Shown piece after piece: positions 1 through 16,244 of a stretch of DNA of 16,830 nt (position 1 is the first letter of the stretch; every line of letters starts with the position of its first letter). The stretch lies in NCBI GenBank assembly GCA_029881215.1, contig JAOUNA010000052.1, positions 1-16,830 on the forward strand, given 5' to 3'. The position numbers were made by a program, and so were the translations under genes. The notes below the pieces were generated by a model. That model saw only the letters and a list, made by a program, of their open reading frames with translations, ran no database searches and was not told where the DNA came from. This DNA is from Myxococcales bacterium. GTDB lineage: Bacteria; Myxococcota_A; UBA9160; SMWR01.

Positions 1-837
1 CACGAACTGCAGGAACGAGGTGCCCTGTGCACCCGTGAAGTCACCCGTCGCCTTGTAGGAGTTGTAGTTCGACGCTTGGCCGTTCAGGAACTCGCCATTG
101 CCCGACGGATGCTTGTGGTTGTCATTGATATACGTGCCATGGCAGCCCGCGCACCATTCTCCCATGTTCTGACCGTACGCCGGGTGGCTGGCATCCGACT
201 CGGCATAGCCAGCGGTGACGGCGATCGGCGCCGTTGTGGTGCCGATGTCGCGCAGCAACCGGTAGTTACCGGCGATCGTGCCGGTCACGGGCTCTTCCCC
301 GTACGAACCCGACACGGAGATCGGGAGCGCGCCCGCCGCCGTGCCGCCCTGCACCTGGCCGTGCGGATTGTGGCAGCTGTTGCAGCCGAGAGCGCTGGCG
401 GGATAGCCGCCGCCAGGCGCCACCGTGTTGGTGCCGTCCGCAGTCAGGCTGAAGTCGATGGCGACTACGTTGTGACCCATGTTGTCGGGGTCGGACGTCA
501 CCGGTGTGCCGCGTACCACGTTCGTGTAGGGCGTGGTCAACCAGAAGAAATCGCCGCCCGGTGAGAACTTGCTGCCGTTGTTGCTGAGCACGGCGTAGCT
601 TCTGGACGGGTTGCCGTGGCAGTTCAGACAAGTCGAGCTCGCGTCTGTGCCCTTCAGCAGGGTGTTGTTGGGCGTGCCCGAAACCGGGTTATCCGGCGAG
701 TTGTGCATGCTGTGGCACCCGTCGCAGTGTGCGACGCCGCCCTCGTGGAAGGCGAGTGCCGTGTTGGCAAAACCGAGAGTCAGAAGCCCGGCCAGCACAG
801 CAACGCCCTGCACGAGCGTGTGACTATTGATCCTCAT
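1..837 (-). CDS. Multiheme c-type cytochrome. N-terminal ~279 aa are present; the C-terminus runs off the window start.
   Basis: Manual minus-strand translation from the ATG at 837..835 gives MRINSHTLVQGVAVLAGLLTLGFANTALA, a signal peptide. Four CXXCH heme-binding motifs follow: CDGCH, CLNCH, CNSCH and CAGCH (the last is the reverse complement of nt 138-152). GC3 is high. The ORF is open to the window edge, so it is absent from the ORF track. Confidence 0.85.
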   Translation of the reverse strand, partial: MRINSHTLVQGVAVLAGLLTLGFANTALAFHEGGVAHCDGCHSMHNSPDNPVSGTPNNTLLKGTDASSTCLNCHGNPSRSYAVLSNNGSKFSPGGDFFWLTTPYTNVVRGTPVTSDPDNMGHNVVAIDFSLTADGTNTVAPGGGYPASALGCNSCHNPHGQVQGGTAAGALPISVSGSYGEEPVTGTIAGNYRLLRDIGTTTAPIAVTAGYAESDASHPAYGQNMGEWCAGCHGTYINDNHKHPSGNGEFLNGQASNYNSYKATGDFTGAQGTSFLQFV

Positions 838-1975
838 TTTCCAGATCCTCCAAGTGATTGGAATCCTCATCTGCAATGAACTCGAGCCGAGCAGATACCC
901 GCTTTTCTTCGACGGTCTGTTCGGTTTCTTGTGACACCGGTGACGGTGTCGTGATCCCGCTTGCGGGATCGCTGCTCTGTGATGAACGTGACGTTTCGTA
1001 GGTTATTCCGAAGACACTCACTCCTCTGTTTGCGGCTTGGCCGACGTAGACGTTTCCGCTGGTGTCGATGACCAGATCATCTGGCACGATCAAGTTGGAG
1101 GGCTGATCGCCGCGGTAACCGAATTCGGTCTGGAATTCGAGCTCGGAGCTGAAGACCAGAACCACGGAGCGCAGTCGGTCCGTGACGTACACGTATCCCA
1201 TCGCATCCGTGGCGATGCCCGCGGCGACGCCGAACTTGCCCGTTCCGCTCCCGCTTCGACCGAACTGTGTCAACGTGCCGTCAGCGGACAGGCGATACGC
1301 GACGAAGAGAGTCGGAACGGTGAAGAACAGGTTGCGGTTTGCGTCGACAGCAAGACCGCCGAGGTCGGCGTTCTGGAGCTTCTTCTTCTGGCGATCGATG
1401 TTCTGCAGCTGATCCGGGCCCGCATCGTCGAGCGCGAGGCTGGGACGCAGCGCGGCTTTGAGGTCGTATCCGCGCCGGAAATATCCGGCTTCATCGAGCT
1501 CGAGGACGCGCATGGCGTTCGAATCGACCAGATAGAGGGATCCGTTCTGATACAGCAACTGGTCTGCGAGGAATTGTTTGTAGGCAGCCGGGACGTTCTT
1601 GAGCTCGAGCTCAGCGAGGTACTCGCCGCGGTAGTTGAGGAGATGGACCGCGGTGGTCTGATAGCCCGAGGTCAAGAGGAAGATGCTTCCGTCCTGGCCG
1701 ACCGCGATGTCCGCGGCACTGGCATAGGCATCTCCGAAGACGAAGATTTCCATGCCGTGCTCGTCGAAGACGCGAATGTCGTTGTGTCGTTCGTCGAGCG
1801 CATAGACTTCGTTGCGCTCGGGATCGACGGCGAGCTTCGCCCAGTGCGAAGGCACGGGACCGGAGAAGTTGGCCAGGGGATAGCGGAAGGACGCCGCCAC
1901 CTCGGCCCGGCCTGGGAGGGACGCCGCAAGCAGCAGGAGCGCGGCGCAAAGCAGTGTGAGCGTTCGTCCCGTCAT
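824..1975 (-). CDS. Secreted NHL-repeat beta-propeller protein. Likely start is the ATG at 1975, not the track's TTG at 1993.
   Basis: Track ORF 824..1993. Signal peptide MTGRTLTLLCAALLLLAASLPGRAEV. Repeated YVTD/VAVD/LLTSG-type NHL blade motifs. The C-terminal tail is acidic and S/T-rich. Its last codons overlap the cytochrome start (ATGAGGATCAATAG), consistent with translational coupling. Confidence 0.8.
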   Translation of the reverse strand: MTGRTLTLLCAALLLLAASLPGRAEVAASFRYPLANFSGPVPSHWAKLAVDPERNEVYALDERHNDIRVFDEHGMEIFVFGDAYASAADIAVGQDGSIFLLTSGYQTTAVHLLNYRGEYLAELELKNVPAAYKQFLADQLLYQNGSLYLVDSNAMRVLELDEAGYFRRGYDLKAALRPSLALDDAGPDQLQNIDRQKKKLQNADLGGLAVDANRNLFFTVPTLFVAYRLSADGTLTQFGRSGSGTGKFGVAAGIATDAMGYVYVTDRLRSVVLVFSSELEFQTEFGYRGDQPSNLIVPDDLVIDTSGNVYVGQAANRGVSVFGITYETSRSSQSSDPASGITTPSPVSQETEQTVEEKRVSARLEFIADEDSNHLEDLENEDQ

Positions 1976-1988
1976 CACTGGCGGGTTG

Positions 1989-2004
1989 TGCAATGGTTGT
2001 GCCG
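1989..2004 (-). promoter_or_regulatory. Candidate sigma-54 (RpoN) -24/-12 promoter CGGCAC-N5-TTGCA on the minus strand, reading into the NHL/cytochrome operon.
   Basis: Minus-strand sequence is CTTCGGCACAACCATTGCACAACCCGCCAGTGATG. The GG and GC elements are exactly 10 nt apart with GGCAC/TTGCA flanks. An NtrC-type activator gene lies 4.7 kb away. Caveat: the GC element sits only about 14 nt before the ATG at 1975. That implies a near-leaderless transcript or a different start. Confidence 0.35.
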
Positions 2005-2076
2005 AAGCTTGTCGAGTCTAAAAAAGATAATCAGAACAGATAGTTAGACTGATATCAGCAAGACCTATCCGCGTTT

Positions 2077-2092
2077 CCAACCTGGCTGTTGG
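2077..2092. promoter_or_regulatory. Imperfect dyad CCAACC-tggc-TGTTGG, a possible enhancer-binding-protein site (UAS), inside an unusually AT-rich tract (2017-2160).
   Basis: 6-bp arms (5 of 6 match) with a 4-bp spacer, about 75-100 bp upstream of the candidate sigma-54 -24 element. The neighbouring AAAAAAGATAATCAGAACAGATAG tract and a T8 run at ~2145 are atypical for this GC-rich DNA and may be IHF/bending sites. A direct repeat TGGCGAAATGGCGAAT lies at ~2113-2128. Confidence 0.2.
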
Positions 2093-2477
2093 GCTTATGA
2101 CCACATCGCAGTTGGCGAAATGGCGAATTTCTCGTTGATTTCGGTTTTTTTTCGCTTCCAAGGCAGCGTGTGGCGCCTCGCGATCCCGTTCGACCCGAGC
2201 TGCGCAGTCTTTCATCCAGCCGGCCTTGCTCGCGCGTCGAAACGGGTGTAGGGATGCGAGGTCGATCCTCGACTCGCGAGACGATTCTTCCACCCGGCTC
2301 CCAGATCCTCCTCCGCCTTCGCCGGGGACTCCGTCCGGGTTGCCGCGGAAGCGCTCGATCTCGCTGGCGCAGTCGTTGGGCAGAGCGGACGTGCCGATCC
2401 GGCGGCCGGGAGCTCGAACGGTCGGAGTCGGCGCGCGATCCGGCGGAAGAAGGCGAGACAGCGGAGAGCAAGGGAGG

Positions 2478-3827
2478 ATGACAGTGGTCCCGCGAAGCGC
2501 GCGTCAGGGCAGGAGGATGCTCCTCGCGGTCGTCTTGGCGATCGGCATTTCCCCAGCCACGCAGGCCGCGATTCCCGCAGTGGAACGAGTGGCCTTGATC
2601 GCTCTGTACGACAGCACAGATGGTGACCACTGGGACGAGAACGCCGGCTGGAAGACGGCGCCCCTCGCGGCGGACGGATTCGCCCTGCCCGGTACGGAGT
2701 GTGCGTGGTTCGGCGTCCTCTGTGACGCCGGAGATACGACCGTGCAGATGTTGCTCCTCTTCTGGAACGACCTGTCCGGCAGTCTTCCTCCCGAGCTGGG
2801 AGATCTTGGGAACCTTCTGGATCTCTCCCTCGATGGGAACCATCTCACGGGCGCCATTCCTCCGCGGCTGGGAGACCTCGCCAAGCTCCAGAGTCTCTAC
2901 TTGGATAGCAACCAGCTCTCCGGCGCCATACCGGCCGACTTGGGGAGCCTTGCAGAGATTCGCAACCTCTATCTCCGAGGCAATCAGCTGTCGGGCCCGA
3001 TTCCTTCTCAATTGGGAAGTCTGGCCAGGCTCGAGGATCTCCGCCTCAGCGAGAATCAGCTGTCTGGCAGCATCCCCCCGACGCTCGGGAGCCTCGGGAG
3101 CTTGCGGGTGCTCTCGCTCTACGAAAACGATCTATCCGGCAGCATTCCCCCCGAGCTGGGCGATCTTGCCAATCTCGAAATCCTCTGGCTGGACGCCAAT
3201 CAGCTCTCCGGCAGCATTCCCTCGGAACTCGGGAAGCTTGCCCGCCTGCAGGTGTTCTGGGCCTTCAGCAATCAACTGACCGGGAGTGTTCCCGCGGCGC
3301 TGGGAGCTCTCGTCGATCTCCGTTCTCTCTATCTCAACGGCAATCACCTGGCCGGCAGTCTGCCGCCGGAGCTGGGAGGTCTTGCGAGCCTTCTCCAGCT
3401 CTATCTCTACGACAACCAGCTCACCGGAAGCATTCCCGCCGGGCTCGGCAGTCTTGCAAATCTCGACCGCCTGTATCTGGGCGGCAACCAGCTGTCGGGC
3501 GCCATTCCGCCGGAGCTCGGCAGTCTCGGAAAACTCCGTCGACTTCTGCTCGACCGCAATCAGCTGGAGGGTCCGCTTCCGCTCGAGCTGCTCGGTCTCA
3601 GCAGCCTGGTCGATGCTTCGAGCAATCTGTGTGAAAACCATCTCTACACAGACGACGCTTCGCTCCGCGATTTTCTGAACAGCAAGCAGATCGGTGGCGA
3701 TTGGGAGGCTTGTCAGATTCTTCCGATTCCCTCCGTTCCCGGCAGCGCTCTCCTCGTGATCTTCGCGCTCCTCACAGGATGTGCCTTGTGGCTGCTGCGA
3801 CCATCGATCCCGGTGCATGCGTCGTAG
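2478..3827 (+). CDS. Secreted plant-type leucine-rich-repeat protein with the architecture of a receptor-like protein: signal peptide, LRRNT_2-like cap, 12 LRRs, Cys cap, C-terminal TM/PEP-CTERM-like anchor.
   Basis: Track ORF 2226..3827. The first 84 codons are R/P-rich junk. AGGGAGG at 2471-2477 precedes ATG 2478 / GTG 2484, followed by signal peptide RSARQGRRMLLAVVLAIGISPATQAA. The cap ALIALYDSTDGDHWDENAGWKT...CAWFGVLCD matches the plant LRRNT_2 pattern. Twelve repeats of NxLSGxIPxxLGxLxxLxxLxL follow. The C-terminus is ...CENHL...EACQILPIPSVPGSALLVIFALLTGCALWLLRPSIPVHAS. Confidence 0.9.
   Translation: MTVVPRSARQGRRMLLAVVLAIGISPATQAAIPAVERVALIALYDSTDGDHWDENAGWKTAPLAADGFALPGTECAWFGVLCDAGDTTVQMLLLFWNDLSGSLPPELGDLGNLLDLSLDGNHLTGAIPPRLGDLAKLQSLYLDSNQLSGAIPADLGSLAEIRNLYLRGNQLSGPIPSQLGSLARLEDLRLSENQLSGSIPPTLGSLGSLRVLSLYENDLSGSIPPELGDLANLEILWLDANQLSGSIPSELGKLARLQVFWAFSNQLTGSVPAALGALVDLRSLYLNGNHLAGSLPPELGGLASLLQLYLYDNQLTGSIPAGLGSLANLDRLYLGGNQLSGAIPPELGSLGKLRRLLLDRNQLEGPLPLELLGLSSLVDASSNLCENHLYTDDASLRDFLNSKQIGGDWEACQILPIPSVPGSALLVIFALLTGCALWLLRPSIPVHAS
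2748..3612 (+). repeat. Twelve tandem ~72-bp imperfect direct repeats (the LRR units) inside the LRR gene.
   Basis: Recurring DNA words at 72-bp spacing (e.g. caatcagctgtc(c/g)ggc..., ggcagcattcc, ctctatct) correspond to the 24-residue protein repeat. Confidence 0.8.
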
Positions 3828-3917: not shown

Positions 3918-4856
3918 ATGCCGAGCGATTGCTCGAAACGGATGCGCTACCTCGCGATTCTCCTGGTGCTTGCTCCGTTGCTGGCATTTGCGGCGAATTG
4001 CAGCGAGCAAGAGCCGACAGCGACTGCGAGCCAGGAGCCTCAGAGATCGATCCGGATCGGCCTCATTCCGGAGCAGAACATCTTCCTTCAGAAGAAGCGC
4101 TACCAGCCGCTCGCAGACTACCTCTCGGAGAAGACTGGTGTGCGCATCGAGCTTCGCGTGCTCTCCAGATACGGGAACATCATCCAGAATTTCGTTTCCA
4201 AAGGTCTGGACGGGGCGTTCTTCGGCAGCTTCACGGCGGCACTGGCGCACCGGAAGCTCGGTGTCGAGGCCGTGGCGAGACCGGAATATCCGGACGGCAG
4301 CTCGACATATCACGGCCTCCTCTTCGTTCGGAAAGACAGCGGAATCCGGAATGGAAACGACATGAAGGGGAAGCGTTTTGCCTTCGTGGACAAGGCAACC
4401 ACCGCCGGATGGCTGCTTCCCCTCTACTATTTCAAGACCCAGGGCATTCGGGACTACCGTTCCTGGCTCAAGGAATCGTACTTCGCGGGAACCCACGAGG
4501 GCGCGATCTACGACGTCCTCGAGAGAAACGCCGACATCGGGGCCGCGAAGAACACGGTATTCGAGGCGCTCGCACGCGAAGATCCCCGAATCTCTGAGGA
4601 TCTGCTGATTCTGGCCCGATCCCCGGATGTACCCGAAAATGGCTTGTGCGTGCGAAAGACGCTCGACGAGCCGCTCAAGCGAAAGCTCAGGGAAACCCTT
4701 CTGGGCCTCGATACGACCAGAGAGGGGAAGAGGATCTTGAAGAAATTCGGTGCGCGCCGATTCATCCAGACGAGCGAGAACGACTACGCGGTGGTGTTCG
4801 AGTATGCACGGGAGATTGGGCTCGATCTCGAGACGTACGACTACATGAACGAGTAA
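3918..4856 (+). CDS. Orphan periplasmic substrate-binding protein of the PhnD/phosphonate-binding family. No ABC permease or ATPase is present nearby.
   Basis: Track ORF 3879..4856; probable start is the ATG at 3918 or 3942. Signal peptide MRYLAILLVLAPLLAFAANCS. Family pattern IRIGLIPEQN...PLADYL...GV.IEL......Y..I......G.DGAF.G.......H..LG.E....P....SS.YHGLLFVRKDSGI....DMKGKRFAF.D..TTAGWLLP..YF...GI. Confidence 0.8.
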   Translation: MPSDCSKRMRYLAILLVLAPLLAFAANCSEQEPTATASQEPQRSIRIGLIPEQNIFLQKKRYQPLADYLSEKTGVRIELRVLSRYGNIIQNFVSKGLDGAFFGSFTAALAHRKLGVEAVARPEYPDGSSTYHGLLFVRKDSGIRNGNDMKGKRFAFVDKATTAGWLLPLYYFKTQGIRDYRSWLKESYFAGTHEGAIYDVLERNADIGAAKNTVFEALAREDPRISEDLLILARSPDVPENGLCVRKTLDEPLKRKLRETLLGLDTTREGKRILKKFGARRFIQTSENDYAVVFEYAREIGLDLETYDYMNE

Positions 4857-4898: not shown

Positions 4899-6746
4899 AT
4901 GAAGAAGAAGATCTTCATAGGGTTCGTGATCCTGACCGCCTGCTTCGTGGGGGGCGGCATCTACATCGCTCGCTCCATCGACCAGGTGATCTCGAAGCTC
5001 GAAGCTGTCATCACGCTGCACCAGGTCGAGATCCTGCGGAAGAGCTTCCTTACGGACGTCAAGGCCGTTCAGCAGGATCTGCTGCTCAAGGATTCGCCCC
5101 ACGAGGCAGAGGATGATTCCGTCATTAGGCGCGGTGAGAAGATGGCGGAGGAGGTCGCCGGCTGTTTCGCCTGTCACCACGCGGAGCCGGCACTCCATCA
5201 GCTGAAGAGTCTACAGGGCGAAATTGACCTGTATCAGAAAGCTCTCAGCAGGGTCTACACGACCCGGGCAAACGCCGAGCGATTGAGTCGACAGAAGCAG
5301 GTCGCGTTCCACATCGGACAGCACTTGATCGAAGAAATCGACAACATCATCGAGTACTCGTCACGCGCACTGGGAAACCGGACGCAGCTCGCGAAGCACA
5401 GCATCGCCGAGACGAAGAAACACCTGACTTTCCTCGTGATTGCGGGACCGGTGATCGGTCTGGCGATCGCTCTGTACTTCATCCACTACCTGACGCGTTC
5501 GATGGGAGCCCTCATCGACGGGACTCGAAAGCTGGAATCCGGTCAGCTGGATCACAAGATCGAAGGCCTGCGGGACGAGTTTGGTGAGCTGGGGGCCTCG
5601 ATCAACGAGATGGCTCATTCGCTGGGCAAGATGATCCGCGCGATCGAGGAGAGCCAGAAGCGGTACAGGATGTTGTTCGAGAGCGCGGGAGATGGAATCC
5701 TCATGCTCGAAGCCGAGGGGGAGAATGTCGGCGGAGTCGTGTCAGCAAATCAGGCGGCTGCGGATATGCATGGCTACACCGTCGCGGAGATGTTAGCGCT
5801 CAACCTTCGAGATCTCGATGCCAGTGAGGACACAACAGCGGCGCGCAAGCGCATCGATCGGATCCTGGGCGGAGAGTGGATCAATGTGGAAAGCAGCCAT
5901 CGAAGGAAGGACGGCTCGATCTTTCCGGTCGAGATCAGCGCAGGGCTGCTCGAGTTCGAGAATCAAAAATACATTCTCGCGTTCGATAAGGACATCACGG
6001 AGCGAAAGCAGGCGGAAGACGCCTTGCAGCGGGCCGAGCAACTGGTGGTCGTGGGCGAAATGGCAGCCGGGCTGGCCCATGAAATCAAGAATCCTCTCGC
6101 TGGAATCAAGGTGTCGATCGAGGTCTTGACGAGCGAGCTGCAGCTCGAGCAAGAGGACAAGGAAGTCTTCGAGCGGATCATCGACGAAATCAATCGTATC
6201 GAGACGCTGCTGAAGAATTTGCTCAGCTACGCAACACCCCCGAGGCCGCAGTTTGCGCTGGTCGACGTGAACAAGATCGTCGAGACGGCGATCAAGACGG
6301 CGGCGTTCACGCTGAAGAGTCCGGGCGGGGAGGCGAAGGAGAAGGACGCGAGGGATGTCCGATTCGAGAAGAGGCTGAGTGAGCATTTGCCGCAGATCGT
6401 CGCAGACGGGGCTCAGCTGCAGCAGGTACTCCTGAATTTGCTGATCAACGCGATGCACGCGATTCAAGGCTCCGGTTGCATTTCGGTTGCTACTGCCGCT
6501 GGCACTGCGCATGCGGTCCAGATCGTCGTGTCGGATACGGGAAAGGGCGTCGGCGGCGCGGACATGGAAAAGATCTTCCTGCCGTTCTTCACGACGAAGC
6601 CGAAGGGAACAGGGCTCGGACTGTCGATCTGCAAGCGCTTGATCGAGCAGCACGGCGGCTCGATTGAAGTTGCGCGCGGTCCGCAGGGAGGCCTCATGTT
6701 CACGATCAGTCTGCCGGTCGAGCAGGGGGAGGGCAGTCACTCGTGA
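4899..6746 (+). CDS. Sensor histidine kinase. Its periplasmic domain (about 150 aa) carries a CXXCH c-type heme motif, followed by HAMP, PAS, HisKA and HATPase_c.
   Basis: TM1 is IFIGFVILTACFVGGGIYIA and TM2 is LTFLVIAGPVIGLAIALYFIHYL. The loop between them contains GCFACHH (nt 5163-5180). A PAS domain runs from RYRMLFESAGDGILMLE to ITERKQAE. The H-box is AAGLAHEIKNPL, the N-box LLNLLINAMHA, G1 VSDTGKGV and G2 KPKGTGLGLSI. Confidence 0.9.
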   Translation: MKKKIFIGFVILTACFVGGGIYIARSIDQVISKLEAVITLHQVEILRKSFLTDVKAVQQDLLLKDSPHEAEDDSVIRRGEKMAEEVAGCFACHHAEPALHQLKSLQGEIDLYQKALSRVYTTRANAERLSRQKQVAFHIGQHLIEEIDNIIEYSSRALGNRTQLAKHSIAETKKHLTFLVIAGPVIGLAIALYFIHYLTRSMGALIDGTRKLESGQLDHKIEGLRDEFGELGASINEMAHSLGKMIRAIEESQKRYRMLFESAGDGILMLEAEGENVGGVVSANQAAADMHGYTVAEMLALNLRDLDASEDTTAARKRIDRILGGEWINVESSHRRKDGSIFPVEISAGLLEFENQKYILAFDKDITERKQAEDALQRAEQLVVVGEMAAGLAHEIKNPLAGIKVSIEVLTSELQLEQEDKEVFERIIDEINRIETLLKNLLSYATPPRPQFALVDVNKIVETAIKTAAFTLKSPGGEAKEKDARDVRFEKRLSEHLPQIVADGAQLQQVLLNLLINAMHAIQGSGCISVATAAGTAHAVQIVVSDTGKGVGGADMEKIFLPFFTTKPKGTGLGLSICKRLIEQHGGSIEVARGPQGGLMFTISLPVEQGEGSHS

Positions 6747-8134
6747 CGATGATCAAGGGAAGAATCTTCCTGCTGGACGACGATGAGTTGATTTCTTCAA
6801 TGGTGGCACGATCGCTGAGGAAGGAGGGCTACGAGGTCAAGAGCGAGACGGGCACGGAAGACATCATCAGCAAGATCTCCACGTGGTGCCCGGACCTGAT
6901 CATGCTCGATATCCACCTGGATGAGGAGAAGAGCGGGCTCGACATTCTCGGCGAGCTGAAGCGAGAGGAAATTCCCGGTGAAGTCGTGATGCTGACGGCG
7001 GACGCATCGGCCGAATCAGCGATCACTGCGATGAAGCTCGGCGCAGCAGACTACCTGACGAAGCCCTTCAACATGGCTGAGGTGCAGCTCGTCATCCGGA
7101 AGGTGATCGAGAAGGAGAGGCTCAAGGAAGAGGTCCGGTACCTCAGGAAGGTCGGAACCATCGGTGTTCAGGACCAGATGATCGGTGAGTCTGCGGCGAT
7201 GGTGGAGTTGATGGAGAAGGCGGAAAAGCTCGCAGAGGCTCATGTTCAGAACGTGTTGATTACGGGCGAATCCGGTACCGGGAAGGAGGTCGCCGCGCGC
7301 TATATCCACAACCGGCTGCACGCGAGGCGCGGTGACGAGTACGCACCCTTCATTGCCGTGAATTGTACTGCCTTGCCGGAGCAGCTGTTCGAGAGCGAGC
7401 TGTTTGGCCACGTGAAGGGAGCGTTCACGGACGCGAGGAACGATAAGAAGGGAATGTTCGAGCTCGCCAACGGCGGAACCATTCTGCTCGACGAAATCGG
7501 GGACATGGCAGCGAATCTCCAGAGCAAGCTGCTTCGCGTGCTCGAGGATCGGTCGGTGAGGCGGCTGGGGGGCAAGACGGATCTTCCGGTCGACGTGAGC
7601 GTAATCGTCACGACGAACACGCGGTTGGATGAAGCGGTGAATCTCGGGAAATTCAGGACCGACCTCTTCTATCGATTGAATGCGTTTCCGCTGCACATCC
7701 CGCCGCTGCGAGAGAGACGCGAGGACATCCCGCTGCTTGCGCGGCATTTCCTGCAGTTGTTTGCGCAGAAGTACCTGAAGAGGGCGATTCGGGAGTTTTC
7801 GCCGGAGGCCGAGAGGATTCTTTGTGCGCACGACTGGAAGGGGAATTGTCGCGAGCTGCGGAACGTGATCGAGCGGATCGTGGTGCTGGAGAATGTGGAG
7901 ACGATTCTTCCGGAGCATCTTCCGGCTGCCTTGCTGAAGGAAGAGTTCGTCGAGAGGCGGCGCGCGACTGGATTCGTGCTGCCGGAGCAGGGAATTTGCC
8001 TCGAGGAAGTGGAGAGGGATCTGATCGTTCAGGCGTTGAAGCGCGCGGAGAACAACCAGACGAAGGCCGCGAAATTGCTCGATCTCTCCTACGACTCGCT
8101 GCGGTACCGCATCAAGAAGTACGGGCTGGTGTAG
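6743..8134 (+). CDS. Sigma-54-dependent response regulator of the NtrC family (REC, AAA+ sigma-54 activator, Fis-type HTH).
   Basis: GTG 6743 overlaps the HK stop (GTGA). REC domain: LLDDDE...IMLDIHL...MLTADAS...KLGAADYLTKPF. Walker A GESGTGKE. ESELFGHVKGAFTDA. The arginine-finger region is FYRLNAFPLHIPPLRERREDIP. C-terminal HTH QTKAAKLLDLSYDSLRYRIKKYGL. Confidence 0.92.
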   Translation: MTMIKGRIFLLDDDELISSMVARSLRKEGYEVKSETGTEDIISKISTWCPDLIMLDIHLDEEKSGLDILGELKREEIPGEVVMLTADASAESAITAMKLGAADYLTKPFNMAEVQLVIRKVIEKERLKEEVRYLRKVGTIGVQDQMIGESAAMVELMEKAEKLAEAHVQNVLITGESGTGKEVAARYIHNRLHARRGDEYAPFIAVNCTALPEQLFESELFGHVKGAFTDARNDKKGMFELANGGTILLDEIGDMAANLQSKLLRVLEDRSVRRLGGKTDLPVDVSVIVTTNTRLDEAVNLGKFRTDLFYRLNAFPLHIPPLRERREDIPLLARHFLQLFAQKYLKRAIREFSPEAERILCAHDWKGNCRELRNVIERIVVLENVETILPEHLPAALLKEEFVERRRATGFVLPEQGICLEEVERDLIVQALKRAENNQTKAAKLLDLSYDSLRYRIKKYGLV

Positions 8135-8571: not shown

Positions 8572-10923
8572 CTAGCGGAATCCGTGCGACGCGAGAACTC
8601 GGGCGGGGAATCCGGGGCCTTCTTCCTCATCGATTTCGTGCAGGTGCTTGTGCTGTGATGCCATCTCGGTCCTGATCTGGACCAAGACCTGCTGGAACTC
8701 GGGCAGATCCCAGAGCAGCTCGAAGGCCGGATCGAGGGGCAGGATCCACCAGGCCACTCGCGCGCCGGCGGCGACGTCTCGTTGCAACGCGGCCAGTGCG
8801 CGTCCCGGCTCGCCCGCGATGCTATGCGCGAGAACGTCCGCGAAGCCGTGGCCAGAAATGCCGGTCACGGGCAGCTTCTCGATGCTGGAGAGAGTCGCGC
8901 CCAGGAGCTTCACCGCGGCATTCCGGTCGCCGGTCTGCAGGCGCAGCAACGCGAGGCTTGCTGCGGCTGTGTAGTTGCTTCCTTGTACGAGGGGTGGGGT
9001 GCTCAGCAACTCCGGATAGATTCTCTCGTAGACGGCCAACGCGGCTTCGGGATCCACCGACTGAAGCTGCCGGAGCCAGAGGAGATGGGGCACGGCCTGA
9101 TATCCAGAGATGCGATCCGTTCGTGTGGCGAACGCTCGCGCGATCTCGAGCGCTTGCTGCCGGTCCCCAGCGTGAAGCGCGAAGAAATAGCGACCGGTAA
9201 GCGCGAAGTAGGTGTCGGGCGCGGTGGCCAGGAGGACTTCCAGCCACCGCGCTGCGGCCGCCGTGTCGTCCAGGTGCAGGTAGAGATGCACGAGCTCGGC
9301 GAGCATCCAGGGTGCCGGATCGAGCGCCAGGGCCCGGGCGAACCAGCGGATGCTCTCATCGATGCGGCCGAGACTCCAGCCCTGCACGATCGCAAGGGCC
9401 CAGTAGTTGGCCGTGACGTCGGGTGACTTGGCGATGTTGGCGCGCAGCCGCTCGATTCCATCCTCCACGCGCCCCGATGCGGCCAGCGCGTAGCCGAACA
9501 GATATTGAGTCACCACGTTCAGCGGGTCTCGCGCGAGGGCCTTCTCGAGGTGGCGCAGTCCCTCTTCCGGCCGTCCGAGGGTTTCGAGCAGCAGGAAGCC
9601 GTAGAGCTCGTGGGGCCCCGCATCCGGGCTCAGCTCGAACGCGCGCAGGTAGGCCGCCTCTGCGCCAGCCGGGTCGCCGAGCAGTTGGCGCAGACGTCCC
9701 AGCGTGGTGTAGGTCTGCGGAGACTCGGGATCGAGCGCCAGCGCCCGCTCCATGGCGGAGCTGGCCGAACGTTCGGCAACCTCGCGGGAGATCGATCCAA
9801 ACTCGTAGAGATTGGCGTAGATGTTCACCAGCGCTCGTTGGGCCGCGGCAAAATCCGGATCCAGCGCGGCGGCTCGACTGTACCACGAGAGCGCGACCAT
9901 CCCGCTCTGAGCGCCCACGTTCTGATGCGCGGCGCGACCCCTCAGGAAGGCTTCGTACGCCTCGATATTGGTGGTTCCGCCCCAGTCCAGCGCGCTGACC
10001 TGCAGCTCGAGGCGCAGCGCGTTGGTGATCTGCCGCGCAATGTCATCCTGGATTTCGAAGATGTCCTGTAGCTCCCGGTGATACGTCTCCGCCCACAGCT
10101 GGAACCCATCCTTCGCGCTGACGAGCTGCGCCAGCACGTGCACCTGGTTTCCGGAAGTGTGCACGCTGCCTTCGAGGATGGCCTCCACCCCGAGCGCTTC
10201 TCCGATCGTCTTGAGATCGGCATCGCTCCCCTTGAACGAGAACGAAGACGTGCGGCCCACCACCCGCAGACCCTCGAAGCGCGTGCAGATGTTGATCAGC
10301 TCCTCGGCCACGCCCTCGGCGAGATACTCCTGATCCGCGTTGTCACTCAGATTGATGAAGGGCAGCACGGCGAGGGAGCGCGGCGGGGTGGGCCTGGCGG
10401 AGCAGAACTTGACGCCCCAGACGGCGGCAGCCGTGAGCAGGAGCAGGACGGCCGCGCGGGCGACTCGGAGTGGGATGCGGATCTGCGCGGGCGCGGTGTG
10501 GCTCATCGCCGGGGCGTGACGGCGCTCCAGGGCGGGGGGCCACGCTGTGATGCTCTCGCTGCCATGCTCGCCCCGGCCGCATCGCGTCGGCGGGAGGGTC
10601 GCTTCGGGCTCCGGCAGCACGTCGACGTCCGCAACGAATCGGAAGCCGTGCCCGTGCTCGGTGCGCAACAGCTTCTGATGCTCGCCGTCGTCGCCGAGAG
10701 CCCGGCGCGCCTTCTGAACGGATCGCGCCAGCGCGGCCTGGGTTACATTGACGCCGGGCCAGAGCGCGTCGAGCAATTCGCCGCTCGACACGACGCGGTG
10801 GCGTTGCTCGATGAGGTAGGCGAGCACATCGAAAGCCTTGGGCTCCAGCGGAACCCGCTGCCCGCGCCGCAGCAGGCTCCTCGCATCGGTGTCGAGGTGA
10901 TACTCGCCGAACCCGAAGCGCAT
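8572..10923 (-). CDS. Membrane-anchored one-component regulator of the CadC/ToxR type: N-terminal OmpR/PhoB winged HTH, single TM, TolB-N-like periplasmic domain, long TPR region.
   Basis: Track ORF 8572..10962 uses a GTG start; the ATG at 10923 (MRFGFGEYHLD) is more likely. wHTH: LEPKAFDVLAYLIEQRHRVVSSGELLDALWPGVNVTQAALARSVQKARRALGDD...HGFRF. TM: IPLRVARAAVLLLLTAAAVWGV. TolB-N-like segment: LAVLPFINLSDNADQEYLAEGVAEELINICTRFEGLRVVGRTSSFSFKG...ILEGSV...QLWAETYHRELQDIFEIQDDIA. TPR-like AYxxAL repeats fill the rest. Confidence 0.8.
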   Translation of the reverse strand: MRFGFGEYHLDTDARSLLRRGQRVPLEPKAFDVLAYLIEQRHRVVSSGELLDALWPGVNVTQAALARSVQKARRALGDDGEHQKLLRTEHGHGFRFVADVDVLPEPEATLPPTRCGRGEHGSESITAWPPALERRHAPAMSHTAPAQIRIPLRVARAAVLLLLTAAAVWGVKFCSARPTPPRSLAVLPFINLSDNADQEYLAEGVAEELINICTRFEGLRVVGRTSSFSFKGSDADLKTIGEALGVEAILEGSVHTSGNQVHVLAQLVSAKDGFQLWAETYHRELQDIFEIQDDIARQITNALRLELQVSALDWGGTTNIEAYEAFLRGRAAHQNVGAQSGMVALSWYSRAAALDPDFAAAQRALVNIYANLYEFGSISREVAERSASSAMERALALDPESPQTYTTLGRLRQLLGDPAGAEAAYLRAFELSPDAGPHELYGFLLLETLGRPEEGLRHLEKALARDPLNVVTQYLFGYALAASGRVEDGIERLRANIAKSPDVTANYWALAIVQGWSLGRIDESIRWFARALALDPAPWMLAELVHLYLHLDDTAAAARWLEVLLATAPDTYFALTGRYFFALHAGDRQQALEIARAFATRTDRISGYQAVPHLLWLRQLQSVDPEAALAVYERIYPELLSTPPLVQGSNYTAAASLALLRLQTGDRNAAVKLLGATLSSIEKLPVTGISGHGFADVLAHSIAGEPGRALAALQRDVAAGARVAWWILPLDPAFELLWDLPEFQQVLVQIRTEMASQHKHLHEIDEEEGPGFPARVLASHGFR

Positions 10924-11253
10924 GGGCCGCAAGCCTCTTCGCCCCGAGGCGCATTTTGCCACGGCGCAGCGAGCAAAGGAAAGAGCGCGATTGCTGCGCC
11001 TGCGGGTAACACAATCACTCGCGCGTGTCTTTCTGGGCGTGGGGGAAGAGCCAATGTGAGGGGGAGCAGCGTGTTGCGCGCCTAGTCGGATTAGCCCCCA
11101 GACTCGGACGCTGCGTGCGACGACGCATGCCCCGGCCCGCGCGTCAGGGGGTCACGCCACCGCTGCGTTCAGCCGATGCGGGGAGGTTGGCGCGGATTCC
11201 CTGCGCGATGGGCGCGCGGAGCGGATCCTCGCCCGGATTCGAGCTCGACGCCG

Positions 11254-11664
11254 ATGTACCTCCGTTCGCGAGGCTTCGCGCTCGCCAGCATTGCGCTGGC
11301 GCTCTTTCTCGGCTGGAAGGTCCTGGCGCGTGGCGCCCACGAGGTCGTGGTGCTGCGCACCGAGACGCTCCAGGGGCAGGACCACTACGCCACCCTCTGG
11401 GTGGTCGATGCCGAGAAGTTCGTGTGGATCCGCGCCGAGAGCCCCACTCGGCGCTGGCTTCCGGCCGTGCGCAAGAATCCCCAGGTAACGCTGCGGCGCG
11501 GCGGTCGCGATCTGCGTTATCGCGCCACGATCTGGGACACACCGGAGGCGCGTGCTTACGTGGATCCGATGTTCCGCGCCAAGTACGGTCTGGCAGATAC
11601 CGCGCGCGCAATCCTGACGCAGCGCGAGACCATTCCCATCCGGCTCGAGCCGCAGGCGCGCTGA
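11254..11664 (+). CDS. Small N-terminally membrane-anchored protein with a DUF385-like (deazaflavin-dependent nitroreductase / PNPOx-like split-barrel) fold.
   Basis: Track ORF 11176..11664; the ATG at 11254 gives MYLRSRGFALASIALALFLGWKVL, a TM helix. Pattern VVLRTETLQG...LWVVDAEKFVWIRAES...WLPAVRKNPQVTLRRGG...ATIWDTPEARAY...IPIRLEP resembles the DUF385 consensus (W..NL.ANP.V ... T.EER ... IPIvv.EP). GC3 is high, and the overlapping minus-strand ORF is R/P-rich junk. Confidence 0.55.
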   Translation: MYLRSRGFALASIALALFLGWKVLARGAHEVVVLRTETLQGQDHYATLWVVDAEKFVWIRAESPTRRWLPAVRKNPQVTLRRGGRDLRYRATIWDTPEARAYVDPMFRAKYGLADTARAILTQRETIPIRLEPQAR

Positions 11665-11672
11665 CGTCGCCG

Positions 11673-12461
11673 CTAACGCTTGTCCGTGTCCTTGGAGTGG
11701 ACGATCTCGTCGATGGTGAAGCCTTCGCTCTCCGCGAGCTTCTCGATTTCCCTGCGCACGCGCTCCTTCGCCGCGACGCGGCGCTTCTCGATCTCGTCTC
11801 CAATGCGCTTGCGCAGCGACTCGAGCTCGGGCAGAGGATAGTCGGCGAGATCGAGGTCCTGTGCTCGGCGCGCGACGCGTACCGACGCCGGCGCATCGCT
11901 GTGGCGCTCGGCGCTCGGCTTCGGCGCGCTCTTCTTTTCGGCGGGCTCTTTGGCGGGCTCTGGTTTCGACTCTTCGAAGCGGATGGCGGTGTCCATGTCA
12001 TCGAGCGGATCCGAGCCGGGTTTCGTCTGGGGCGCCTGGCGCTTGTCGGACCGCGCGTCGAGGACCTGGGGCGCCTCGTCGAGCGCATCCGCGGAGTCGT
12101 CGGTGTCGAGGGAGGACGCGGCATCCAGCTCGGCGCTCTTGCTGGCGTCGACCAATGTTGCGACCCGATCCACGCCCCGGCGCAGCTCCGGGCCGGGCTT
12201 TTCGTACGCGATGGCGAAGCCGCCGGCGGTGTGTCGCGCGACCTTGCCCTCGAGCTGAAAAGGCTTGTCCTGATTGGGGAGAGATACGTACAAGATCGTG
12301 TGGGCACCGACCTTCGGCTGAAGCTCTACATCCTCGATGCGCGCGCCTGTGTACGAGATGTCGGCGAGAATCCCTTCTCCTTCCTGACGCTGGGAGGAGA
12401 AGTGCGTCTCGAACCAGGTGCGGATGCGGGGACTCCGACGTGTCGCGCTCGCTTGGTCCAT
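11673..12461 (-). CDS. PilZ-domain protein (putative c-di-GMP receptor) with an acidic/Lys-Pro-rich disordered linker and a C-terminal charged coiled-coil helix.
   Basis: Track ORF 11673..12656; the ATG at 12461 is preceded by GAGGGGTGG. The PilZ signature is RRSPRIR (RxxxR) followed 22 residues later by DISYTG (DxSxxG). The linker is DDSADALDEAPQVLDARSDKRQAPQTKPGSDPLDD...KPEPAKEPAEKKSAPKPSA. The tail is LPELESLRKRIGDEIEKRRVAAKERVRREIEKLAESEGFTIDEIV. Confidence 0.75.
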   Translation of the reverse strand: MDQASATRRSPRIRTWFETHFSSQRQEGEGILADISYTGARIEDVELQPKVGAHTILYVSLPNQDKPFQLEGKVARHTAGGFAIAYEKPGPELRRGVDRVATLVDASKSAELDAASSLDTDDSADALDEAPQVLDARSDKRQAPQTKPGSDPLDDMDTAIRFEESKPEPAKEPAEKKSAPKPSAERHSDAPASVRVARRAQDLDLADYPLPELESLRKRIGDEIEKRRVAAKERVRREIEKLAESEGFTIDEIVHSKDTDKR

Positions 12462-12633
12462 GGGTTCCACCCCTCTTGTCGTCCAGGGAAGCCCGGGCTG
12501 CCGGCCCGGCGAGCCCGCCGCGATAGGAACGCGGCTCTGGCTATGGGGGTGAATCGGCTGGGATCGAAGCGGACCTGAGATCGATTCTCGTCTCTCCGCA
12601 GCCACGTTGCTCGCGACTGCGGGGGCCCGACGC

Positions 12634-12999
12634 TCAGCGAATGCGCAGGAAGGCAAGCCCGACCGCGAGCATCACGCAGGCGCAACCCGCGGCCGTGAGA
12701 AGGAATCCGGCACCGCCCAGGTAGAACCACCGCAGCACGGCGGCGCGCTCGGGGCCCGAGAGATCCGCGTGCAGGGCGGTCGGTCGCAGCCACCAGCGCG
12801 CCGGCAGCGGCCCGTGCGCGCGCAGCGCGCGGTACAGCCGCACGTGGTACCAGAATCCGGTTGGCACGCCCAGCAGCATGCCCAGCGCCACGCAGCCGAT
12901 CCCGGCCGACAGGACCCACTCGAGCGGGAGGATCGGGACGAGCCAGCCAATCGCGCAGAGCACGACGAGCGCGGCCAGCGCGATCAGCGTTTCACGCAC
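12634..12999 (-). CDS. Small hypothetical integral membrane protein (3 predicted TM helices, W/R-rich loop).
   Basis: GTG start at 12999. Strong GC3 bias. Hydrophobic segments LIALAALVVLCAIGWLVPILPL, VLSAGIGCVALGMLLGV and FYLGGAGFLLTAAGCACVMLAVGLAFL. Same strand as the flanking SBP and PilZ genes. Confidence 0.5.
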   Translation of the reverse strand: MRETLIALAALVVLCAIGWLVPILPLEWVLSAGIGCVALGMLLGVPTGFWYHVRLYRALRAHGPLPARWWLRPTALHADLSGPERAAVLRWFYLGGAGFLLTAAGCACVMLAVGLAFLRIR

Positions 13000-13062
13000 G
13001 CCTCGCCCATCGTCCGCGCCGCGCGCGCGCTTGAACGCGTGGGCGTCGATCCACCGCTGCAG

Positions 13063-13905
13063 CTAGGGAAGTTGTTCGAGCCAGCTTGCGTCTTCGAACC
13101 AGCGATCCTGGAGCTGCGCGAGCCTGCCGGTGAACTCGAGACCCTGCAGCAGGTTGTCGACGAAGTTGAGCAGCAGCGGGTCCCCGGCCGGGAGCGCGAT
13201 GCCGATCGGCTCGTGGGTCAGCCGGGTGATCACCGAGACCAGATCGCTGTCGGGGTTCCGGGCGTGGGCGACCAGGCAGATGGGATAATCGGCGATCATC
13301 ACGTCCGCCTCGCCCGAGAGCACGCGGCTCACGGCCGTGTCGTAGTCGGGCGCGGTCGTCAGCCGCGCCGCCGGAATCAGCTTCTCGACGAACGCCTGGC
13401 TCGTGGAGCCCTGCAGCGCGGTGACGGTGAGGTTTGCACTGTTGATTTCCGCGGCGCTCTCTGCCGAGGCAAGGCTGCTGGCCTTGGTGAGCACGCACTT
13501 GCCGGAGACGAAGTACGGACCCGCGAAGGCCACCCTCAGGTTGCGCTCGGGCGTGATGGTCATGGCGGAGAGCACCATGTCCACCTTGCCGGTCTCGAGC
13601 GCTCCGAGCAGCTCCGAGAACTGCAGCCTCTCGAGTCGCAGCTTCACGCCCATTGCAGACGCGAGGTACGCGGCCAGATCCGGCTCGAGTCCGATGATCT
13701 CACCGCTGCGCGTCGTCATGTTGAGCGGCGGCATGCTGGCTGCGGTCCCGACCACCAGCTCCCCGCGCGAGAGAATGCGGTCCAGGACCGGCGAGTAGGT
13801 GGCCGCCGGCGTGCCCCCGACGTGCGAGCAGCCGAGCAGCAGGAGCAGCGGCGCGGCCAGGGTCCAGCGCGTCCAACGAGTCGGTCGGGTCTGCGGTCGG
13901 TGCAT
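13063..13905 (-). CDS. Orphan lipoprotein substrate-binding protein of the SBP_bac_3 (polar amino-acid binding) family.
   Basis: Track ORF 13063..13920; the ATG at 13905 follows GGGAGGAG with a 5-nt spacer. Lipobox LLLLGC. Family pattern LVVGTAASMPPLNM...GEIIGLEPDLAAYLASAMGVKL......F..L..AL..GKVDMVLSAMTIT.ER...V.FAGPYF.SG....GEADVMIADYP. No permease or ATPase gene lies within the window. Confidence 0.85.
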   Translation of the reverse strand: MHRPQTRPTRWTRWTLAAPLLLLLGCSHVGGTPAATYSPVLDRILSRGELVVGTAASMPPLNMTTRSGEIIGLEPDLAAYLASAMGVKLRLERLQFSELLGALETGKVDMVLSAMTITPERNLRVAFAGPYFVSGKCVLTKASSLASAESAAEINSANLTVTALQGSTSQAFVEKLIPAARLTTAPDYDTAVSRVLSGEADVMIADYPICLVAHARNPDSDLVSVITRLTHEPIGIALPAGDPLLLNFVDNLLQGLEFTGRLAQLQDRWFEDASWLEQLP

Positions 13906-13996
13906 CGGGGCTCCTCCCATCTGAGCGCTGCGTCACCGCGGGGCGTGGAGCGGAGCGCGGGGAGCGGGAGGGTAGGCTGCGGAGACCTGCTGTCGA

Positions 13997-14028
13997 GGCC
14001 CGCGCTGCAATGCGAGGGCGCGGGGGCC
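13997..14028 (-). terminator. Candidate GC-rich hairpin 3' of the zinc-ribbon membrane protein gene (GGCCCGCGC - 12-nt loop - GCGCGGGGGCC). It has no U-tract.
   Basis: Inverted repeat 13997-14005 / 14018-14028, 8 nt beyond the stop at 14036. Confidence 0.2.
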
Positions 14029-14035
14029 GGGGAGC

Positions 14036-14581
14036 TCAGGCCAGGCGCTCGATGGGGAGGGGTCGGCCCTGCGCGTCCCACGCGGCACAGCGCGTGGATC
14101 TTCGCTCGAACGGCGCGAGTCTTTCGCCGGGGCGCTTCCACCACATGATCCCCAAGCCGCTTGCCCACGTCAGCACGCCCGAGAGCAGCGCCGGTTCGAG
14201 GGCGCTCGCCCACACGAGCCCGGCGATCGCGAGCGCAGCTGCCGAGGCGAGGCCCGCGCTGCCGCGCCGCAGGCGCTCGCGTGGCGAGGTCAGGCCCGCG
14301 GGCCAGGCGACGGCGCGACGCGCGCTTCGAATCCGGGTCGTGGTGATCTCGCTACGCATGAATCCGACGCGCACCGCGGTGGCGTGAGCTTCGCGCACGA
14401 GATCGGCACTGCCGCAGTGCGGACAGAGCTTGCGGCGCAGCAGGTGCCGGAGCGCGCAGTAGAGCAGGCCCGGCAGCGCCAGGCAGAGCCACGCCAGCAG
14501 CTCGAGTCGATCCGATCCAGCGAGCAGCGTTTCCGGGACGGCCGTGTGGAAACAGCGGGTGCAGAGCATGCGAGTCTTCAT
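14036..14581 (-). CDS. Hypothetical membrane protein with an N-terminal Cys4 zinc-ribbon-like motif (CxxC-x41-CxxC) and a C-terminal ~40-residue hydrophobic hairpin.
   Basis: The ATG start begins MKTRMLCTRCFHT...LELLAWLCLALPGLLYCALRHLLRRKLCPHCGS. A basic linker and AGLASAAALAIAGLVWASALEPALLSGVLTWASGLGIMWW follow. GC3 is strongly G/C, and the overlapping plus-strand ORF is R-rich. Confidence 0.55.
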   Translation of the reverse strand: MKTRMLCTRCFHTAVPETLLAGSDRLELLAWLCLALPGLLYCALRHLLRRKLCPHCGSADLVREAHATAVRVGFMRSEITTTRIRSARRAVAWPAGLTSPRERLRRGSAGLASAAALAIAGLVWASALEPALLSGVLTWASGLGIMWWKRPGERLAPFERRSTRCAAWDAQGRPLPIERLA

Positions 14582-15606: not shown

Positions 15607-16101
15607 CTAGCTCCCCTCGATGGAAACGCCGATCTCGGTCTGCGGTCCGGTCACCATGATCGTGATGATCGCCGTTCGGTCGCCCTTCTTTGCGACGAGA
15701 CGGTGCGTCTTCTCGTTCTCCTCCGAGAGGGTCCAGCCGTTCTCCTGCATCTGCTCGCGGTAGAACCCGTAGACCTCGCTCGGGGCTGCGCTGGTCTGGA
15801 AGATGGCGAACACACCGCTGCCCGGAGCGGACATGCCCGTCTGCGCGGTCGTTCCCGGATAGGTCGGAACGTCGGGCGGGAAATCGCTCGGGAGCTGACC
15901 CACTTCAGGCAGCGCCACCTCTGCCTCGGACGGGGTCGGGACCGACTGACTCGCTTCCCGCATGCCGGGAGCCGGGCTGGCTTCCTGGGCCGCTTGCGGG
16001 CCGGTCCCCTTCGTTTCTGACTTCTCTCCGCACCCCGCGAGACCCGCGGCGCAGCAGCATGCGATCACGACCATCGGAAAACGTCGGTGAATGAGTGCCA
16101 T
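15607..16101 (-). CDS. Hypothetical lipoprotein (about 164 aa).
   Basis: Track ORF 15607..16569; the upstream 156 codons are R/P-rich junk. The ATG at 16101 follows GGAGGGAG. Lipobox MALIHRRFPMVVIACCCAAGLAGCGEK. A Pro/Ser/Thr-rich linker leads to the compact C-terminal domain ...YGFYREQMQENGWTLSEENEKTHRLVAKKGDRTAIITIMVTGPQTEIGVSIEGS. Confidence 0.6.
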   Translation of the reverse strand: MALIHRRFPMVVIACCCAAGLAGCGEKSETKGTGPQAAQEASPAPGMREASQSVPTPSEAEVALPEVGQLPSDFPPDVPTYPGTTAQTGMSAPGSGVFAIFQTSAAPSEVYGFYREQMQENGWTLSEENEKTHRLVAKKGDRTAIITIMVTGPQTEIGVSIEGS

Positions 16102-16244
16102 CGAGTCGTTACTCCTCCCTGGGCCGCAGGCATCGTACCGCCACCGGGCCGCTTCCGCCGCCCTCCCGGGCGGTGCGCCCGGGCCCGTTTCGGACTCTTG
16201 ATGGGCTATGCTCCGCGCCCTTGCATTTCCTGCGGAGCGAACCG

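Follow-up and report, generated by a model that had tools for sequence, protein, structure and literature searches.

A conserved candidate sigma-54 promoter close to the start codon of an NHL-repeat/multiheme cytochrome operon from uncultured bacteria

What controls an operon whose apparent promoter lies almost against its start codon? This question is raised by a 16,830-nt stretch of DNA (contig JAOUNA010000052.1 of assembly GCA_029881215.1; hereafter the window) from a metagenome-assembled genome named "Myxococcales bacterium" in NCBI, in which a gene for an NHL/SBBP beta-propeller protein (the NHL gene) is followed by one for a multiheme c-type cytochrome. The locus was also recovered elsewhere: a 66.5-kb contig carries it, as do several more. 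A first-pass annotation of the window had placed a sigma-54 promoter, an AT-rich bend and a dyad upstream of this operon, had proposed the neighboring NtrC-type regulator as the likely activator, and had remarked on how near the -12 element lies to the ATG. Following up these proposals across homologous loci, we find a conserved set of promoter elements and, in one class of promoters, a conserved spacing that would leave almost no room for an mRNA leader.

On the minus strand, the sequence in question reads ...aagctt CGGCAC aacca TTGCA caacccgccagtg ATG ACG.... Its core (CGGCACAACCATTGCA) has a GG and a GC doublet with a separation of exactly 10 nt and matches the TGGCAC-N5-TTGCW consensus at 10/11 positions, the first T alone being off-consensus, just as had been read in the first pass. 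The GGCAC-N5-TTGCW core occurs once in the window, compared with 0.04 occurrences expected from 200 dinucleotide shuffles (the earlier estimate was ~0.1). When up to two mismatches to TGGCAC-N5-TTGCW are allowed, there are 10 matches in the window for 5.9 expected, among which 1989-2004 is the sole one-mismatch match and the sole intergenic one. Further sigma-54 sites, such as one serving the divergent operon, were rejected since the other 9/11 matches in the window are all intragenic. The previously described AT-rich tract is present where it was reported, with an A6 run at 2021-2026 (+) and a T8 run at 2145-2152 (+), and appears as a dip in GC content, which is 0.44-0.48 over 1950-2150 versus 0.6-0.73 on the flanks.

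Could this be a chance resemblance within ordinary AT-rich intergenic DNA? A lone 10/11 match could be random, and matches are seen in 9/200 of the shuffles. From genome and metagenome collections, 160 homologous loci were gathered and the 400 nt upstream of each NHL homologue were scanned with a threshold of at least 9/11, promoters being counted over 69 non-redundant loci. Since the proteins encoded at these loci share from 62% down to 36% identity, the loci count as independent sequences and not as duplicates of an assembly. Of the 69 loci, 64 have a sense-strand -24/-12 motif ahead of the NHL homologue (at least 10/11 in 54 of them, perfect in 28), whereas the controls give 13 on the antisense strand, 3 in coding sequence of equal length and 1.6 in shuffles. 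Moreover, when 14 diverged upstream regions were aligned with sequence as the sole anchor, six blocks alone were retained: G.GAAATC.CCA, TGGT..TATC.CCA, GTAAC-N4-TGTTTT, a T-tract, TTGGCAC-N5-TTGCA and GATGACG. A motif that recurs in this way, with its orientation kept and its partner elements fixed, effectively refutes chance resemblance, to which we attach a negligible probability. The reading of 1989-2004 (-) as a sigma-54 promoter is borne out by its conservation upstream of the orthologous gene, and we hold it with high confidence, as established as far as sequence analysis reaches. The promoter itself is of the ordinary, textbook enhancer-dependent kind.

As for the distance between promoter and gene, the ATG begins 15 nt past the C of the -12 GC, the sequence between them being cacaacccgccagtg. 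The first-pass annotation had left open that this start codon was mis-assigned. We reject this option because the N terminus, MTxRTL followed by a signal peptide, is conserved across 35 aligned homologues and because there is no other in-frame start ahead of the mature NHL protein; the spacing described below also rules against it. No Shine-Dalgarno sequence is found in the 14 nt before the ATG, yet GGAGG-type sites are present at the cytochrome, leucine-rich-repeat (LRR) and regulator genes of the window. In a set of 70 non-redundant promoters, spacing was measured between the C of the -12 GC and the A of the earliest ATG in frame. It peaks sharply at 12-19 nt (n = 34, with modes at 15 and 17), while the other 36 have spacings from 23 nt up, which are 80 nt or less in 29 of them. 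The start codon is ATG in all 34 short-spacing promoters, and a Shine-Dalgarno core occurs in 5/34 of these versus 12/29 of those with longer leaders. In the protein tree, the short-spacing class corresponds to one large clade, with a GC content of 45-67%, plus a separate pair (L014 and L015), and leaders in the sister clade are ordinary. Between -12 and the ATG it is the length alone that is kept, not the sequence. The closeness of the two elements is thus confirmed as a property held in 34 promoters.

In vitro data from Pseudomonas putida place the beginning of the -12 hexamer at -16 to -14, with G as the commonest first base (PMC11997794). A sigma-54 start usually lies 11-13 nt after the C of the -12 GC, which, combined with a GC-to-ATG distance of 12-19 nt, predicts leaders of 0-6 nt for the short-spacing class and of 1-4 nt in the window (starts 1979-1976). 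We somewhat favor a leader of at most 6 nt. As this would leave no room for a ribosome-binding site, leaderless-type initiation is probably the most economical reading. Alternatively, the translated mRNA could have a conventional leader, originating from an upstream promoter or leading to another start codon, in which case the proximity of -12 and ATG would be irrelevant to translation. Such a leader would be compatible with a transcription start that is a prediction only, with sigma-70 promoters that, in this lineage, may not fit the consensus used for scanning, and with the lack of a precedent for near-leaderless sigma-54 mRNA in the open-access literature searched. However, it would have to be reconciled with an ATG that opens a conserved signal peptide and has no in-frame substitute, with the missing Shine-Dalgarno sequence at a locus where other genes have GGAGG, and with Shine-Dalgarno cores that do occur in sister lineages with longer spacing. 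Above all, a spacing of 12-19 nt kept in 34 promoters of a deep clade, while the intervening sequence varies, is hard to explain if spacing is unimportant. We consider a conventional leader improbable.

A different arrangement is seen in the clade of L138, L163, L166 and L118, where the NHL start lies 140-210 nt past the promoter and another ATG is found ~13 nt after the GC. This ATG opens 8-10 codons (MPTHNLDDDN, MTRYNLDVDN, MPSFNVGR), or 64 codons in L118, and may correspond to a leaderless open reading frame (ORF) within the leader or be a remnant of the short-spacing arrangement. That these 140-210-nt leaders share a conserved, leaderless small ORF was rejected since there is no consistent small ORF, but only peptides of 8-10 codons and one ORF of 64 codons.

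Upstream of the core, the first two blocks of the alignment are copies of the palindrome YGGTGAWWTCACCR (TGGTGA-N2-TCACCA). In the family, this palindrome occurs twice, 22-23 bp apart, and at most loci its centers lie ~113 and ~91 nt upstream of the GG. In some lineages the palindrome takes the form TGGGAA-N2-TTCCCA, and one clade carries an upstream motif of another kind. In the window, the two copies, which we call upstream activator sites (UAS) 1 and 2, are 23 bp apart and form the only such pair in the 16.8 kb on either strand, with a fixed-position pair arising in 1/5000 shuffles. Their centers, as listed in Table 1, are reckoned from a start predicted at 1978. While these two conserved palindromes do lie at distances typical of activator sites, the dyad singled out in the first pass, CCAACC-TGGC-TGTTGG at 2077-2092, is another sequence altogether. 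It has 5-bp arms (CCAAC-N6-GTTGG), which is below the threshold of the repeat finder that left it unreported, and it falls between the conserved blocks, where the aligned sequences show no conservation. We have rejected it as an activator site; it is present, but is no more than chance.

Between the activator sites and the core, the alignment retains the GTAAC-N4-TGTTTT block and a TTT..TT block at a fixed position. The consensus for integration host factor (IHF) is WATCAANNNNTTR, which the GTAAC-N4-TGTTTT block resembles on the opposite strand. Matches of at least 8/9 to this consensus are found in 25/69 loci within the -80..-25 interval, compared with 6/69 in a control interval, and 13 of these 25 occur at one position, 35-37 nt upstream of the GG. 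The AT-rich bend that had been proposed is therefore supported at the level of the family, by an IHF-like element and T-tract at a fixed position, but less so in the window itself, where IHF binding is likely, not secure, because the local copy (2047-2033) matches the consensus at only 6/9.

Which protein would bind the dyads? The best candidate is encoded in a cassette of three genes on the same strand, specifying a periplasmic binding protein, a sensor histidine kinase and a response regulator, with junctions of 42 nt and -4 nt. The binding protein scores above the cut-off of TIGR01098, a PhnD-type subfamily model, and its matches to solved relatives are 5e-31 to 4e-21 for PtxB/PhnD, 2e-14 for ArrX and 6e-12 for AioX. 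For kinase, regulator and binding protein alike, all scores against NCBIfam equivalogs are under the equivalog cut-offs. The regulator consists of REC, Sigma54_activat (PF00158 at 5e-63) and HTH_8 domains. Its sigma-54 contact loop (aa 226-231; window 7418-7435 (+)) reads GAFTDA, the canonical form being GAFTGA, and the D is conserved throughout the regulator family. GAFTDA is a recognized functional variant in regulators of Desulfovibrio vulgaris (PMC4641369).

This cassette adjoins the NHL-cytochrome pair in L008, L009, L010, L096, L109, L113, L121, L144, L152 and L154, in divergent orientation in some and co-directional in others, and regulators of 55-60% identity are encoded a few kb downstream of the pair in L125, L127, L141, L146, L163 and L166. 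Furthermore, the second helix of the helix-turn-helix (HTH) domain conforms to NMTK.AKLL.VSYD..RYQAKKY at loci with TGGGAA-type dyads and to N[QK]..AAKLL.[IL]SYD.LRY..KK at loci with TGGTGA-type dyads, and the clade whose upstream motif is of another kind encodes a third regulator type. The earlier proposal that the neighboring regulator is the activator is thus plausible, and repeated synteny together with this co-variation of helix and dyad makes it, in our view, fairly probable that the product of 6743-8134 activates the NHL promoter. We put it no higher because co-variation is correlation rather than binding and because the cassette does not always adjoin the operon. L007 and L093, which represent the subfamily nearest to the window, have conserved dyads and no cassette within 8 kb upstream, which is what would be expected if the promoter were real but activated by an enhancer-binding protein encoded elsewhere, the neighboring regulator controlling something else. 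The degenerate dyads of the window point the same way, as does the fact that genomes of these lineages encode many such regulators (PMC12316311). Set against this are the adjoining cassette in at least 10 loci, in either orientation, the related regulators a few kb downstream in six more, and the HTH type that shifts together with the dyad type. An activator from elsewhere is, on balance, unlikely, and we retain the neighboring regulator as the more probable one.

The kinase of the cassette has a feature of its own. Residues 89-93 (window 5163-5177 (+)) read CFACH(H), a c-type heme-binding motif, in the periplasmic domain between the membrane segments. Both C-x-x-C-H and a nearby SPH are conserved in the kinases beside the NHL-cytochrome operons of L008, L009, L010, L109, L113, L144 and L152. 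The periplasmic domain has no Pfam domain and no significant match among solved structures. The motif suggests that it is a heme-based redox or ligand sensor, for which the PhnD-like binding protein is the presumed co-sensor.

Taken together, the elements observed, their conservation and their spacing make it very likely that 1989-2126 (-) is an enhancer-dependent sigma-54 promoter region driving the NHL and cytochrome genes, and they lead us to a model that predicts its sigma-54 dependence, the dyad-binding protein, binding by IHF, the precise start and the way in which translation begins. RNA polymerase containing sigma-54 would wait as a closed complex on CGGCAC-N5-TTGCA, while an NtrC-type activator would assemble on the two dyads. 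This activator would most probably be the regulator of the cassette, phosphorylated by the adjacent kinase, which would itself act with the PhnD-like periplasmic protein. Bending of the DNA by the IHF-like element and T-tract (centered at ~-62) would bring the activator into contact with the polymerase, and ATP hydrolysis by the activator would then open the promoter. Transcription would start 11-14 nt past the -12 GC, giving a leader of ~1-4 nt before the ATG, and with a leader so nearly absent, translation would begin in leaderless style, without a Shine-Dalgarno sequence.

Several points speak against this model and should be weighed with it. In the window, the first position of the promoter is C where the consensus has T, the UAS copies are weak (8/12 each, the left half of site 1 being degenerate) and the IHF-like copy has the low match given above. 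The absence of the cassette within 8 kb upstream in L007 and L093 concerns precisely the protein subfamily closest to the window. The leader of at most 6 nt is derived from promoter geometry alone, and in the open-access literature searched there is no description of a sigma-54 transcript with so short a leader. Finally, the scan of 1900-2600 in which no sigma-70-like promoter or terminator was found used an E. coli-type consensus, which may not fit this lineage.

How does this system compare with known ones? Classical enhancer-dependent sigma-54 promoters that involve IHF are those of the Klebsiella pneumoniae nifH, P. putida Pu and E. coli glnAp2 type. The promoter of the window resembles these in its -24 GG / -12 GC core, whose doublets are spaced 10 nt, in its tandem dyads ~100-150 bp upstream and in its presumed activator, an NtrC-family protein that has an AAA+ domain for interaction with sigma-54; at the level of the family, a candidate IHF-like bend site lies between dyads and core. 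It differs from them in that the start codon is 12-19 nt past -12, with no room for a Shine-Dalgarno leader. Among the regulons described in the literature searched, none matches the TGGTGA-N2-TCACCA dyad consensus or the target genes.

The sensor cassette is reminiscent of AioXSR, ArxXSR and ArrXSR, three-component systems for arsenic oxyanions. In these, a sigma-54-driven redox operon is under the control of three proteins encoded next to it: a periplasmic PtxB-like protein, its kinase and a sigma-54 regulator (PMC5908839, PMC6011840). Here too, genes for a histidine kinase and a sigma-54 response regulator are grouped with one for a PhnD-like binding protein, beside a redox operon. However, the binding protein is nearer to PtxB/PhnD (5e-31) than to ArrX or AioX (2e-14 and 6e-12), the kinase has a periplasmic CxxCH motif, and the target is an NHL propeller with a multiheme cytochrome, not an arsenite oxidase or arsenate reductase. 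Because its binding protein and targets differ in this way, the cassette is, judging from sequence, AioXSR-like in architecture but not a member of the AioX/ArxX/ArrX subfamily.

Two further systems can be likened to this one as far as the consulted portions of their sources describe them. In Geobacter sulfurreducens, the sigma-54 response regulator BccR is divergent from the cbcBA cytochrome operon that it induces (bioRxiv 10.1101/2021.04.15.440034). The likeness is one of gene arrangement, namely a gene for a sigma-54 regulator that diverges from a sigma-54-driven cytochrome operon; the operon there encodes a b/c-type quinone oxidoreductase rather than a periplasmic NHL propeller and multiheme cytochrome, and that portion of the source describes no binding-protein partner. 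NHL-repeat proteins are also found in the outer-surface multiheme-cytochrome clusters of D. ferrophilus (DFE_0451/0463) and "Ca. Tenderia" (UetH/I) (PMC9769857, bioRxiv 10.1101/2022.05.06.490989). Here the likeness is one of gene content, an NHL beta-propeller beside multiheme cytochromes, thought to serve extracellular electron transfer. Those clusters are larger than ours, and the consulted portions say nothing of how they are regulated.

Table 1. Features of the promoter region and its surroundings (window coordinates)
Feature	Position	Strand	Remarks
Multiheme c-type cytochrome	1-837	-	second and last gene of the operon; 378 aa in full contig; from translation and gene calls
NHL/SBBP beta-propeller protein	824-1975	-	first gene of the operon; 383 aa, signal peptide; Pfam NHL and SBBP
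ATG start codon of NHL gene	1973-1975	-	no Shine-Dalgarno upstream
Predicted transcription start zone	1976-1979	-	11-14 nt after C of GC; a/g/t/g; from sigma-54 geometry
Candidate sigma-54 core promoter, CGGCAC-aacca-TTGCA (CGGCACAACCATTGCA)	1989-2004	-	-24 GG at 2003/2002; -12 GC at 1991/1990
IHF-like element cTAACtatcTGTTCT (2047-2033) and T-rich tract (2030-2021)	2021-2047	-	center ~-62 from predicted start
Putative proximal activator site, UAS 2, TGGTCATAAGCCCA	2090-2103	-	center ~-118; 8/12; homologous to TGGT..TATC.CCA block
Putative distal activator site, UAS 1, TCGCCATTTCGCCA	2113-2126	-	center ~-141; 8/12; left half-site degenerate
Consensus dyad, putative target of regulator HTH domain, TGGTGAAATCACCA			
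LRR protein, secreted	2517-3827	+	436 aa; divergent from NHL operon
PhnD/PtxB-family periplasmic binding protein	3918-4856	+	Pfam PF12974 at 4.7e-64; alternative start 3879
Sensor histidine kinase	4899-6746	+	transmembrane segment, periplasmic domain with CxxCH, transmembrane segment, HAMP, PAS, HisKA, HATPase
NtrC-type response regulator	6743-8134	+	REC, sigma-54 AAA+ with GAFTDA loop, Fis-type HTH

The operon comprises the NHL and cytochrome genes only, with a convergent M16 peptidase gene beyond. The cytochrome gene, which extends past the edge of the window, encodes several CxxCH motifs and overlaps the NHL gene by 14 nt. The NHL protein has >230 homologues, nearly all of them metagenomic, and its pairing with the cytochrome is preserved at nearly all homologous loci. 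The LRR gene sits between the promoter region and the sensor cassette. It is a conserved neighbor in the closest subfamily since LRR homologues of 47-59% identity are found 2-5 kb from the NHL gene in L007, L088, L092, L093 and L100.

Between the activator sites and the LRR gene lie ~350 bp of apparently non-coding DNA (2160-2516; GC content 0.63-0.73), with short inverted repeats (for example 2229-2240 / 2269-2280, 92%) and a direct repeat of 11 nt (2395 / 2436). This stretch yields no Rfam match and no promoter of sigma-70 or sigma-54 type that could serve the divergent operon. At the homologous loci, the antisense sigma-54-like motifs of at least 9/11 (13/69 loci, compared with 1.6 in shuffles) include 4 of at least 10/11, which hints at divergent sigma-54 promoters at some of them. 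A riboswitch or other structured RNA between the genes was rejected, as an Rfam scan of 1900-2600 identified no family and returned sub-threshold matches to eukaryotic snoRNAs only.

Directly after the sigma-54 regulator gene, and convergent to it, is a gene (8572-10962 (-)) for a large regulator with an N-terminal OmpR-type winged-helix DNA-binding domain, a predicted membrane segment and many TPR repeats. It is followed by two consecutive ORFs of ~515 aa at 11025-14148 (+) and one of 320 aa at 15607-16569 (-), which have no Pfam match at 1e-3. On the same contig beyond the window (L001, 15721-21152), there is a second cluster encoding an NHL protein of 313 aa, a multiheme cytochrome of 427 aa, a protein of 676 aa that has no Pfam hit, and a peptidyl-prolyl isomerase, with a 9/11 sigma-54-like match at 17891 (-) inside the cytochrome gene.

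What sets this locus above the routine is an entire architecture deeply conserved in uncultured lineages, combined with a conserved spacing that leaves almost no leader. Neither this near-leaderless sigma-54 design nor the regulon is described in the open-access literature that we searched. We give an even chance to the broadest interpretation, which is that throughout the clade enhancer-dependent sigma-54 promoters produce mRNAs with leaders of 0-6 nt for a secreted NHL/cytochrome pair, under a three-component sensor, undescribed in that literature, made up of a PhnD-like protein, a kinase carrying a heme-c motif in its periplasmic domain and a GAFTDA activator. If this is true, these would be the first class of sigma-54 transcripts described in that literature to be translated without a Shine-Dalgarno leader, and the regulon would be a new redox- or oxyanion-sensing one, widespread in uncultured sediment Desulfobacterota and Myxococcota. 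For a widespread and uncharacterized NHL/cytochrome pair of uncultured sediment bacteria, our analysis provides a testable regulatory map, in which a core promoter is set out together with its pair of activator sites, its bend site and the likely sensor cassette, and the dyad consensus and its variants could help to follow the regulon through metagenomes. The heme-c motif of the kinase hints at a redox input to cytochrome expression. Lastly, the conserved 12-19-nt gap suggests that sigma-54 promoters can feed leaderless translation, a combination that we have not found described and that, if confirmed, would tie tightly gated transcription to leader-free ribosome binding.

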